Shown here: positions 2,596 to 60,226 of the stretch, in pieces
Layout of the letters: every line of letters begins with the position of its first letter
Numbering within the stretch: the stretch's first letter is position 1
Assembly (NCBI GenBank): GCA_951406725.2
Contig: OX597815.1
Location: 7,130,001 to 7,194,000, forward strand
Length of the DNA stretch: 64,000 nt
Source: Octopus vulgaris
Lineage: Eukaryota
Direction: 5' to 3'
Notes under the pieces: generated by a model
Told to the model about the DNA's origin: nothing
Databases searched by the model: none
The model's input: the letters and a program-made list of their open reading frames with translations, nothing else
Translations under genes and position numbers: made by a program

Positions 2596-2886
2596 GGAAA
2601 CCTGTTACAGTGTGTCACATTACTTGTTACTGTGTGTCAGCCTGTACTGTGTCAGATTGTTGCAGTGAGTCAGGCAGCTTGTCACAGCACGTCACATAGC
2701 TTGTCACAGTGAGTCAGCTTTGCTACAGTCTCTTGTAACCTGTTACAGTATGTCACTTAGTCTGTCACAGTGTATCAGATAGTGTTCTCCCGTTAATTTC
2801 TGACACTGTTATTGCATGGCTCTTAGCCTGTCACAATGTATCACATTAGTTTGTCACCATTATCCTGTTACAATCCCATTCTTAGT

Positions 2887-3006
2887 CTCTTTTACTCTTT
2901 TACTTGTTTCAGTCATTTGACTGCGGCCATGCTGGAGCACCGCCTTTAGTCGAGCAACTCGACCCCGGGACTTATTCTATCGGTCTCTTTTGCCGAACCG
3001 CTAAGT
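2887..3006 (-). mobile_element. SINE family B 3' fragment
   Basis: Matches the reverse complement of the 3' end of 34903-35312 (ctccagcatggccgcagtcaaatgactgaaacaagtaaaagag). Confidence 0.75.
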
Positions 3007-3544
3007 CCGTTTACTTTGATTTTATAGTTTAGCATTTAATATGTTACAGTGCTACACTTGATTTCTTAGATTCATGTTACAGTGCTAGAGACACTTTAAC
3101 TGTTTTTTCTCCCCTTTACACAGACGGGATGGCTTATTCCTTGTTGCAATTATTTACATCTGAATGGCTTTCCGATCACTAGCCACTACACTAGATACCA
3201 TTATATTTCAATAGTTTACCTGTCTTGGATGTCTTTACATCTGGGACATCTTTCTTGTTTCTAACTAGAAATATATATTTCCTGTCTCTGACCATTCAAC
3301 TGTCAATTAGGGAGTAGAATTTAATTAAGTTGGATGACCAAATAATAGCTTTAGTTCTCATAAGGTTTGAACTTTTGACCCCGTGGCCAATCATCCAGCC
3401 TCACCTTAACTAAAGTGAGGTTTGAACTCTTAGTCATGAGTGTCAATCTAGCTGTACTTTCACCACAGTAGGGGTTAGAACACATGACTACACTATCTTC
3501 ACTATGGCTAGAACTTATGACTATCTGAAGACATACTACAATAC

Positions 3545-17952: not shown

Positions 17953-19412
17953 TTTCCTCTATTTACATAATATTGAGGTCTCTTTCTTTCTTTTGTTATC
18001 TTACTGTTTTTACCAATATACATATATATATATATATATAAATATATATATAGTTACAGAGATGTACTTGCATAGCAAGTGACTTGATCTGAGATCGTGT
18101 GCTGGAACGAAAACAGTTGCAGCGTTGAAGGTGTTTATAAGCCATTTAAGAAACACACAAAAACCGTTAGATTCACTTCAACATTTAAATTTAATTTGTC
18201 AAAATATTTTCGTCGCTTTGAGACCGCGACCTGTTAGCACGATATTTTTGTCAGTGAACAGGTCGCGGTCTGAAAGCGACGAAAATATTTTGGCAAATTA
18301 AATTTAAATGTTGAAGTGAATGTAACGGTTTTTGTGTGTTTCTTAAATGGCTTACAAACACCTTCCACGCTGCAATATATATATACACACACATATATAT
18401 ATGTGTGTATATATGTGTATGCATGTATGTGTGTGTGTGTGCGTGTCTGTGCTTGTGATTGTCCTCCACCACTGCTTGACAACGAATGTTGGTTTGTTTA
18501 CATCCCTGTCACCTAGTGGTTTGACAAAGGAAACAGATAGAATAAGTACAATGCTTACAAAAATAAAACTGGAGTTGATTCATTAAAGTACAATTCTTCA
18601 AGGCATTGCCCCAGCATGGCCACAGACCAATGGCTGGAAAAAGCAGAAGAATAAAAGAATACATTCTCTGCTTTGGTCTTATGTTCAAGGCATGAGAAAG
18701 CTTGAGTTTACATGAGAAGGCCTAACAGACCTGGTAGAAACAGCAGCCAAATCTCCCTCAAATCACACCTTACTGTCTTATGTATGTATATATATATGAG
18801 CCAATGAGGGGGACCTCTACATGGTAGCTAGACCTGGTAACATGGTAGAAATAGCAGCCAAATCTCCCTCAAATCACACCTTACTGTCTTATCTTTCTGC
18901 TACTTGGATATAGGTGTTATATTCGTCGTAAAAAACTTTCCTGTCACACACTCACGCACACGCACACACACACACACACACGCACCCTCACACACACACA
19001 CGCGCACACCCACACACACACACACTCACACACACGCACGTTAGCTTACAATTTTATTTATATATTTGCGTGTCTATGTGTGGAAAGAGGAAGTGGGAGG
19101 CAGAGTGAAAGAATCACTCACTACAGTAAGTGAATTACTTTCATTTTATTCGTTGCCCACTGTGTGTGTGCGTTTGCGTGTGGTGTAAACCAGACTAAGA
19201 AAAGCATTTGACACACACACCAGAATGTGAGTTTTCTGTAAATTTTGCTTAATTGGAGTTTAAATTTTAAAAACTGGACCTGGCATGACGCGATGCATTG
19301 TACTCTTAAAAATGCTAGGTAAATTGTAATTGAAGAAATCCTATATTGTAGATTTCTATAACTCCCAAAGGGAGGCAGATAAAATCTGCCTTTTATAATA
19401 AGAGATAACTGT

Positions 19413-19710
19413 GGAGGCGCAATGGCCTAGTGGTTAGGGCAGCGGACTCGCGTTCATAGGATCGCGGTTTCGATTGCCAGACCGGGCGTTATGAGTGTTT
19501 ATTGAGCGAAAACACCTAAAAGCTCCACGAAGCTCCGGCAGGGGGTGGCGATCCCTGCTGTACTCTTTCACCACTCTTTCTCTCACTCTTCTGTTGGCCT
19601 GCTCGTTTAGCCAGCGGGGTGGCGTCATTCGAAGGCAAAAACAATGCGAACGTATTGTGACCAGCAATGTGTAAAACATCTGATGGTCTGGTCGGTCACG
19701 TGATCACATG
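19413..19710 (+). mobile_element. SINE family A head with tail type 2
   Basis: ggaggcgcaatggcctagtggttagggcagcggactcgc... head; tail ends ggtcacgtgatcacatgata. Confidence 0.8.
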
Positions 19711-19725
19711 ATAAGTATAACTATA

Positions 19726-19867
19726 TATGAGTGGGGGTGCTGGAAAGTTCCTGGCTTTGGGGAAAAAGAAAATACAAGAGGATCAGTTAATCATGATTTT
19801 ATTGAACATAATCCCTTCTCAGATTCACACACTTATTGCAGGGGTCCTTCAGTTTTTCTATGCCCTG
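19726..19867 (-). mobile_element. Mariner 3'-end relic
   Basis: TA-tgagtggggtgctggaaagttcc TIR-like end. The - strand resembles a decayed mariner C-terminus (GIEKL..R..KCV...GDYVE type). Confidence 0.55.
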
Positions 19868-20001
19868 TATTTGCCCTCATCTTGTTTGTTGTTAACACAA
19901 CGTTTCGGCTGATATACCCTCCAGCCTTCATCAGGTGTGTTGGGGAAATTTCAAACCTGGGTTCTCATTCCTAAGGTATTTTTCAATGTTGTTGATGCTG
20001 T

Positions 20002-20033
<32 letters not shown>

Positions 20034-20330
20034 TTGTTGTTCATGTCACTGCCTGGAATTGAACTTGGAATCTTGGGGTTAGAAGCCTGCACATTAACCA
20101 CTATGCCATATGCCCACGGGCAGATGGTGTAGTGGTTAAGAGCATGGCCTACTAACCCCAAGATTCCAAGTTCAATTCCAGGCAGTGACATGAATAATAA
20201 TAATAATAACATCGAAATATACCTCAGGAATGAGAACCCAGGTTCGAAATTTCCTCAAGACACCTGATGAACGCTGGAGGGTATATCAGCCGAAATGTTG
20301 TGTTAACAACAAACAAGATGAGGACAAATA
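19868..20330. mobile_element. Head-to-head fold-back of a tRNA-headed, hammerhead-tailed element
   Basis: 19868-20115 is the reverse complement of 20118-20330. Each arm has A-box, B-box, trinucleotide tract, and CTGATGA...GAAA. Confidence 0.8.
19895..19938 (-). ncRNA. Minimal type I hammerhead ribozyme motif
   Basis: ACAC-CUGAUGA-A-GGCUG(gagggUaUaU)CAGCC-GAAA-CGUU/GUGU. Palindromic AACGUU in place of stem III, as in PLE minimal hammerheads. Confidence 0.7.
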
Positions 20331-20850
20331 TCCGTCAAATGTAAATGATGGAAATTAAGGAGGTCATTGTTGGATACTCTGGCTGAGAAATCTTGTGGAT
20401 ATCCAGAATGTGTGACAGATTGATGTAGACATGAATAACAAGAATCAGAATTAAAATCCAATATTAAAGAAAGTGAGTATTGACATGATGAGAGTCAAGT
20501 GGACTGAGCCAATGTTGGTGATGATGCTGGAAGCATATACACACATATACACATAAGTCTACAATCAGCGGTCATTTAGGGGTCACTGAAAATAGTAGTT
20601 GTTGCATCCATGAAATAAAACCAGTTAAACCGACAACAACCATGAGGATTGGTGATGATGATAATGTTGGCCTCCTGGGGTGGACTGAGTCGTTGGTCAC
20701 TCAGGCACTGCCTGAGGGCCCGGAGCTCTGAGGTGCCCGCTCTCCACATGTTAACTCTACTAAAACACACATTGAAAGGGGCCTGGTAAACAGTTAAGCC
20801 TGAGGGCCCTGAATACTCTCAGTCTGCTCCTGATGGCAGTGACAGTGGAG

Positions 20851-46932: not shown

Positions 46933-51368
<4,436 letters not shown>

Positions 51369-59636: not shown

Positions 59637-60226
59637 TTATCAATTCAAAATGAACAATTAAATTACACCATCTAGAAAATTACATATAATAGAAATATTA
59701 AAAATAAAATAACAATAATATACCGATGAATAAGTAAATTGCACAAAAATAATAAAAACGTATGTAGGACGTATAATATATATATATATATATTATATAT
59801 ATCAGGAAGGAAGGAAAGAAGGAGACAAACGGTTTAACAAACAGATGTATTAGTATAACGTCAGAAACATAGAAAAGTCTTTTACGGAGCCTACGATCTT
59901 CTACAGAGAAAGAAGGAGAGAGACAAGGAGACAAAAAATAGTGCTAACGATACACTCGCGGTCATATATATATATATATAAACGCCATGATCGATCGTTA
60001 GTCACTACACACATTGTTTGTCTCCTTGTTTCTCTCTTCTCCTATGTTTCTCTGACGAAATGCGTAGGCTCGAAACGTTAAACCCTCCTTTTTCCTTCCT
60101 TCCTGAGCGTCCAATAATACTATATTTGTTCCACGTCCTCGCGTTGTTGTGCTTTTTTGTGCTTTCTTGTTTGGATTAACTTTATTTATATATATATATA
60201 TATATATAATATACATATATAATCTA

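Follow-up and report, generated by a model that had tools for sequence, protein, structure and literature searches.

Three tRNA-derived SINEs of octopus, OK, OR1 and OR2, were reportedly described by Ohshima and Okada in 1994; OR1 and OR2 are of Arg origin. One of these two is classed as a CORE-SINE, being OR1 in one account (PMC4824008) and OR2 in another (PMC4758252). The literature available to us treats SINEs as passengers of LINEs, and it reports Pol III promoters within terminal repeats for non-coding LTR derivatives only. Penelope-like elements (PLEs) are characterized by an inverted upstream copy and a one-sided tail of 30 to 40 bp (PMC8557442), and pairs of hammerheads on opposite strands, 100 to 700 bp apart, are known among them (PMC4209133). 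For the Anolis element PAc, the published account ties the tail to two internal start sites of the reverse transcriptase (RT) and reports that hammerhead mutants still insert in vitro (PMC11167929).

The window analyzed here is a stretch of 64,000 nucleotides of the Octopus vulgaris genome (contig OX597815.1, positions 7,130,001 to 7,194,000, forward strand). A preliminary description, made from the letters alone, had singled out in it a pair of head-to-head arms, each carrying a tRNA-like head and a hammerhead ribozyme, and had tentatively read them as a separate non-autonomous element with its own Pol III promoter, a 3' end made by self-cleavage, and a PLE as the source of its mobilizing enzyme.

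Architecture of the locus

Sequence inspection confirmed both arms diverging from a 2-nt centre, with their A- and B-boxes, repeat tracts and hammerheads (Table 1). The span first given to the unit, 19868 to 20330, is too short on the right, where the arm reaches to about 20350. The absence of T4 runs (TTTT) between head and ribozyme was likewise borne out, the first such run lying past the ribozyme, at +344 (left) and +736 (right) from the head.

Table 1. Features of the fold-back locus, in window positions
Feature	Position	Strand	Remarks
Left tail, truncated	19868..19894	-	Ends at a TA junction within another repeat
Left minimal type I hammerhead, core intact, overlapping the ORF start	19895..19938	-	Predicted cut 19899/19898
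Left linker with likely start codon of the parent ORF, ATG 19968-19966	19939..19984	-	Frame continuity in other copies; N terminus of homologue P0014
Expanded (AAC/AGC)n tract, counterpart of the family's (AAT)n	19985..20040	-	
Left tRNA-derived head	20041..20115	-	A-box 20108-20098, B-box 20064-20055; tRNA profile 16.4 bits
Native 5-bp palindrome with 2-nt centre 20116-20117, the fold-back axis	20111..20122	.	
Right tRNA-derived head	20118..20193	+	A-box 20125-20135, B-box 20170-20179; 12.6 bits
Tract of (AAT)n and linker of the right arm; ATG 20230-20232 is the likely ORF start	20194..20259	+	
Right hammerhead, decayed	20260..20303	+	G10.1->C (20272), C15.2->T (20296); predicted cut 20299/20300
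Right tail	20304..20350	+	Ends 51 nt beyond the cut, at the short 3' end of the family

The left hammerhead, which had been called intact, indeed has a complete core, with a stem II of 5 bp, a stem I of 4 bp and a palindromic stem III. Together with the family majority it fits the minimal type I hammerhead of PLEs as defined in the available text of PMC4209133 (conserved core, an extra base after A9, a G10.1-C11.1 pair and a palindromic stem III), whereas the right arm does not. Decay of the latter had been noted, and its two changes break both the G10.1-C11.1 pair and the stem III palindrome; the stem III duplex is predicted at +0.8 kcal/mol on the right, an unstable palindrome, versus -3.5 kcal/mol on the left. 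The predicted active fold of the left arm lies near the MFE (-10.5 versus -11.9 kcal/mol). Neither Rfam nor ARAGORN detected the head or the hammerhead.

The left arm extends 31 nt beyond the cleavage site and ends inside a different repeat (window 19726-19869) that breaks off at this point and has its normal continuation in five other loci. Because that repeat continues differently there, the long tail and the TSD of the left arm appear to have been deleted; no TSD remains at this locus. We take the interrupted repeat to be mariner-like.

Other repeats and motifs lie in the same window. Another tRNA-headed repeat occupies 19405-19715, and among the 34 sequences of it that were examined a fold-back was seen in one only (L029). 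A separate inverted repeat of 119 bp, with arms 96% complementary and 21 nt apart, lies at 18117-18375, and further hammerhead-core-like motifs, belonging to other families, occur at 60052 (+), 26837 (-) and 25913 (-).

Size and spread of the family

The 44-nt hammerhead has 955 exact matches in the genome, versus none for its reversed control, and the 22-nt head-to-head centre recurs exactly at 351 loci, so that a chance nesting of head and ribozyme can be set aside. Since the exact 44-mer is found in 9 of 156 arms that were not selected by hammerhead, the genome would hold about 16,500 arms (roughly 9,000 to 36,000), that is, roughly 10,000 or more; copies were met in 2 of 20 random 10-kb regions. 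Head and hammerhead co-occur in 27 of 29 loci anchored by similarity and in 27 of 30 head loci taken in genome order, as had been anticipated, and an inverted arm lies upstream in 22 of the former and 17 of the latter. The family looks decayed, with a mean divergence from the majority sequence of 5.3% (216 copies). Read sets under three other organism labels contain the head, the hammerhead, the tail and the ORF start, with loose ends at the same places.

The copies are dispersed, mostly as inverted pairs or solo and only occasionally as direct tandems, which is not the pattern of the non-LTR retrozymes (head-to-tail tandems with a hammerhead in each unit). The (AAT)n tract is often expanded or invaded by other repeats (L003, L009, L011, L021, L043, L060, L082 and L110), and an ORF fragment among the invaders resembles a Dong/R4 element.

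The unit is the pseudo-LTR of a Penelope element

The unit is the pseudo-LTR (pLTR) of a decayed Penelope/Poseidon-type element, head included, and not a separate SINE with a borrowed tail. The autonomous-type PLEs expected to share its 3' segment are found as decayed copies, the tail running on into the N terminus of a Penelope ORF. Some copies run upstream of the head into a common reading frame, and the element reads, in order, ORF stop, a spacer of 29 nt, tRNA-derived head, (AAT)n tract, the likely ATG, hammerhead, tail and the remainder of the ORF. The head, or a fragment of it, directly follows the ORF end in all 29 loci anchored at that end (one of them a duplicate), and the head is present in 14 of 16 RT-anchored loci that reach it. 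In eight loci (L258, L249, L261, L263, L243, L246, L264 and L268) the head or a fragment, the tract, the hammerhead, the tail and the ORF N terminus lie in one piece. The pLTR arises from partial tandems and the hammerhead overlaps the ORF start, as in EN+ PLEs; the ORF of PAc likewise begins in the hammerhead, with the same layout, in the published account (PMC11167929). A homologue, P0014 (847 aa, 54% identical in its C-terminal part), has an N-terminal peptide that matches the hammerhead-coded frame (10/21, E=0.002).

In 38 of 42 copies the ORF is closed by a TAA that lies 29 nt before the head; a stop within the A-box had also been considered and was rejected, as it occurs in one read-through copy only.

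Read from broken copies, the ORF encodes an RT followed by a C-terminal GIY-YIG-like domain, as in EN+ PLEs. The RT matches Pfam RVT_1 (E 1e-9) upstream in the same ORF, and the assignment of the C-terminal domain is based on motif, two cysteines lying between its GIY and YIG positions, and on an Atlas score of 0.97 to clusters in which 15-27% of members carry PF01541; Pfam did not match an endonuclease domain. Read by eye, these two cysteines and the lack of an extra CX2-5CxxC linker, which occurs in Neptune/Nematis, place the family with Penelope/Poseidon as far as the available definition goes (PMC8557442). An intact ORF was not found among 139 RT matches, the longest open frame being 569 aa, and the activity of the parent protein is therefore inferred from the insertion footprint.

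It had been allowed that the unit might simply be part of an already annotated PLE pseudo-LTR. That it belongs to the pLTR of an ORF-bearing family is now clear. The octopus Penelope family may already have a name: a paper on O. vulgaris repeats does not mention hammerheads in the text available, and its supplement may name the family (PMC13282606).

The window also contains, at 48726-49103 (+), the GIY-YIG end of a second, young PLE family, which has numerous open frames of 776-847 aa and for which a first look gave 17,152 candidates.

Copy ends and the fold-back

On the reference copy, the 3' ends fall into two clusters, 47-66 and 99-101 nt beyond the cut. Another copy gives the same two classes, and no cluster of 3' ends lies at the hammerhead cut. 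Nor was a pile-up of 5' ends found at the cut, where 2 of 323 arms start exactly and 17 in the next 10 nt. Among 55 fold-backs with two outward tails, 51 have one long and one short end, and a TSD or shared word of at least 8 bp flanks 38 of the 55, versus 73 of 2970 mismatched (shuffled) flank pairs. The insertions thus follow the rules of EN+ PLEs (an inverted, 5'-truncated upstream copy, a one-sided tail and a variable TSD), as described in PMC8557442 and PMC11167929, in agreement with the PLE-type mobilization suggested at the outset.

Since the copies extend 50-100 nt past the cut and carry the Penelope footprint, cleavage is not the source of the 3' end, contrary to what had been proposed, and the fold-back represents a scar of insertion. 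The hammerhead comes with the inherited ORF start, and the inserted ends are defined without it. A dimer partnership between the two arms is likewise unneeded, the fold-back being the usual Penelope insertion product, the right ribozyme decayed and the copies numbering in the thousands. An independent ribozyme-SINE, with its 3' end cut by the hammerhead and its arms as mutual dimer partners, is for these reasons highly improbable. The intact core and stable stem III palindrome of the left arm, the lack of T4 ahead of the ribozyme and the precedent of Sm-alpha, as described in PMC6765202, would suit it; the ends, however, do not cluster at the cut, some copies run through the intact ribozyme into the ORF, decay has affected the right arm, the head belongs to an autonomous-type element, and insertion in vitro was unchanged in the hammerhead mutants reported for PAc (PMC11167929).

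The 2-nt centre of the fold-back is native, the same bases preceding the head in ORF-linked copies. The two arms of a pair share 0.21 rare variants (of about 6), versus 0.07 for random pairs, and 8 of 43 pairs share any. This fits, though it does not prove, a common template followed by separate decay of the arms.

The tRNA-derived head and the 5' boundary

On a tRNA profile built from 24 distinct tRNA genes of the same genome, four head copies score 12.6-20.1 bits, and the best of 1500 shuffles scores 9.2. The closest match among the 30 tRNA loci fetched, which cover some isotypes only, is tRNA-Arg (48/74). We take the A- and B-boxes of the family majority to fit the tRNA consensus, spaced as in tRNA; the acceptor stem is unpaired. 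A head with tRNA-type A- and B-boxes, at which 23 of 30 copies in genome order begin, is what is expected of a SINE2. A LINE-derived 3' tail and a head absent from the autonomous partner are not found: the tail is the Penelope ORF start, and the parent has the same head.

The 5' boundary at the head is sharp. Only 7 of the 30 heads in genome order continue into the ORF (5 of 28 if a triplicated, near-identical locus is collapsed). In a set of 82 heads, 11 are ORF-continuous, and 69 of the other 71 match the native upstream sequence for at most 7 nt. About 80% of heads thus lose the upstream sequence within 8 nt, versus 0.3% per nt elsewhere; background truncation was measured at 0.0028/nt over 28 ORF copies and at 0.001-0.006/nt over the bodies of 323 arms. 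Exact 23-mers number 2862 genome-wide at the head start versus 832 some 30 nt upstream, two words that may differ in mutability. This pile-up is best explained by a Pol III start at the head, and the promoter function proposed for the unit is supported to that extent. Three unstranded cDNA runs under another species label gave equal depth on both strands and no pile-ups of starts or ends, and are uninformative for short Pol III RNA.

Two other explanations of the boundary were weighed. (i) A SINE head may have been inserted into the UTR of a Pol II-transcribed Penelope, the short copies being 5' truncations at which the RT stalled or snapped back at the palindrome and the GC-rich head. The native palindrome does lie exactly at the pile-up, snap-back was seen in a few cases at another palindrome of the body too, so that the native one may add to the pile-up, and the promoters described for Penelope and Chlamys elements are located within the pLTR and associated with a spliced intron and H3K4me3, features that point to Pol II (PMC8557442, in the part available). 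Short and ORF-linked copies are also not clearly separated by variants, diagnostic positions differing weakly (p 0.007-0.11 in all sets, not significant in unbiased sets). Against it, ends do not accumulate at eight other ORF palindromes of at least 5 bp (any 10-nt interval has at most 3 of 103 ends, counted from BLAST starts that include internal deletions), many short copies join 1-4 nt from the head without an extended palindrome, and no T4 runs are shared across the whole unit. We regard such a passive passenger as unlikely. (ii) RNase P or a similar activity may have cut a long transcript at the tRNA-like head, the short product then serving as template. The boundary at a tRNA-like 5' end would agree with this. 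RNase P cuts at position 1, however, whereas 2-7 native bases upstream of that position are kept in most short copies, and the acceptor stem is unpaired, which makes processing quite improbable.

We therefore favor a Pol III start, and read the locus as an inverted double insertion of a pLTR in which a captured tRNA-derived segment likely started short Pol III transcripts, probably copied SINE-like by the parent RT/GIY-YIG protein. Pol III would start about 2-7 nt upstream of the head. The parent protein would bind the uncleaved RNA and prime internally in the tail, as reported in vitro for the protein of Anolis PAc. At the 5' end of the RNA, the cDNA would fold back on the native 5-bp palindrome or switch template, either of which would give a mirror arm with a constant 2-nt centre, and both arms would have decayed separately afterwards.

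In one copy, a TATA-like stretch (L111:1654-1662) some 30 nt ahead of the inferred start contains the ORF stop. Short copies lack this stretch, and its loss could make the ORF-linked copies the main source of short RNA.

Depletion of T4 runs in the ORF

The sense strand of the ORF contains 0.43 T4 runs/kb (104 ORF segments, 78 kb), and no T4 site is common to a majority of copies, the most shared ones occurring in 6 of 27 and 3 of 34. The controls were related PLE loci on metagenome contigs, of which the 58 longer matches out of 79 were taken; these form 13 clusters. Their median is 4.1 T4 runs/kb, and 2 of the 58 are as low as the window's Penelope family; the ratio of observed to expected T4 runs is at least 1.05 in 11 of the 13 clusters, versus 0.19 in that family. 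The second PLE family of the same genome has 6 T4 runs in 2541 nt, and no tRNA-like segment was found in the 900 nt after its stop. Synonymous recoding yields a mean of 4.4 T4 runs, with P(0)=0.009 but P(<=2, as in the decayed pieces tested)=0.15-0.18, which counts against a purging of T4 runs. In this genome T4 is a plausible terminator, as the first T run within 40 nt of 29 tRNA loci is T4 in 9 (longer in 14, none in 6). Two further observations speak against such purging: G4 runs are depleted too, and in the control cluster L340/L341 a stretch of 2958 nt is free of T4, although this cluster lacks the head and has T runs in its UTR.

The second low-T4 control cluster is represented by L301 (contig JGI1357J11328_10009043, region 2816-3067), an intact tandem PLE from another source with a unit of 2791 bp. 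Its stop is followed by an A-box/B-box pair in the UTR, and then come an AAT run, a hammerhead and the ORF start. None of the other 57 controls has such a pair after the stop, and the UTR of L301 is the only T4-free one among the 8 with a hammerhead. The 3' part scores 6.9 bits on the tRNA profile, exceeded by 1 of 1500 shuffles and by none of 32 control stretches. L301 could be a case in which a tRNA head was captured independently. Each unit holds two T4 runs, 249 and 368 nt past the head, the first at L301 position 3064, and the remaining 2.4 kb is free of them; the two runs would favor a short transcript over a full-length one, so that support for the latter is partial.

Given the T4-poor ORF and the similar layout of the intact L301, whole-element transcription by Pol III is possible. 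Tentatively, the entire coding Penelope element of about 2.6 kb might be transcribed by Pol III from the head, with TTTT purged and the pLTR shed as a SINE, and a head might have been captured more than once (L301); from these sequence patterns we hold this extension to be a possibility rather than a probability.

Comparison with known systems

One sequence serves here both as the terminal repeat of an ORF-bearing Penelope and as a SINE-like unit, which shows how an autonomous element can directly give rise to a SINE of its own, and the copy ends give genomic support to the in vitro result that the Penelope template is uncleaved RNA. If the T4-free ORF reflects Pol III transcription, this would be a protein-coding retrotransposon driven by Pol III; the translation of an uncapped RNA and the role of a hammerhead that overlies the start codon would then become testable questions.

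The preliminary description knew of no counterpart to the architecture. A tRNA head joined to a hammerhead is in fact known from the schistosome elements Sm-alpha and Sj-alpha. In the literature searched, as far as its text was available, neither a tRNA head inside the pLTR of an ORF-bearing PLE nor a PLE-mobilized SINE came to light. Like the octopus unit, Sm-alpha and Sj-alpha have a tRNA-derived Pol III promoter followed by a hammerhead and a very high copy number (PMC2770079, PMC6765202). They differ in being tandem multimers freed by cleavage, with a head derived from tRNA-Gln, whereas the octopus ends are not defined by cleavage, and the available text of these papers mentions no ORF-bearing parent that shares the head.

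The octopus SINEs OK, OR1 and OR2 also have tRNA-derived heads, the classing of OR1 or OR2 as a CORE-SINE being a point of difference. The TRIMp3 elements Cassandra, Helenus and Ajax likewise carry in their terminal repeat a Pol III promoter derived from a small RNA and probably acquired with a captured SINE, as described in PMC10886601. They belong to the LTR class and are non-autonomous only, and their autonomous partners are argued there to need Pol II, whereas in octopus the ORF-bearing element itself has the head. The non-LTR retrozymes and the non-autonomous Chlamys MRC1 are, in the accounts available, non-coding pLTR derivatives thought to use PLE enzymes (10.64898/2026.07.22.740005, PMC8557442), and resemble the short octopus copies in this respect; the retrozymes form head-to-tail tandem arrays and are described without a tRNA head (10.64898/2026.07.22.740005), unlike the octopus copies.

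Among the closest known systems are the EN+ PLEs of the Penelope/Poseidon clade, such as PAc of Anolis and Penelope of D. virilis, which share a single RT-GIY-YIG ORF and a hammerhead over the ORF start (PMC11167929, PMC8557442, PMC4209133), 3' ends located beyond the ribozyme, a tail that is optional, partial tandem copies, an inverted 5'-truncated upstream copy and a TSD. Relative to the EN+ PLEs so far described in the texts available, the octopus family is set apart by a UTR composed of a tRNA-derived A/B-box segment and (AAT)n, by the pile-up of 5' ends at the head, and by a T4-poor ORF sense strand.
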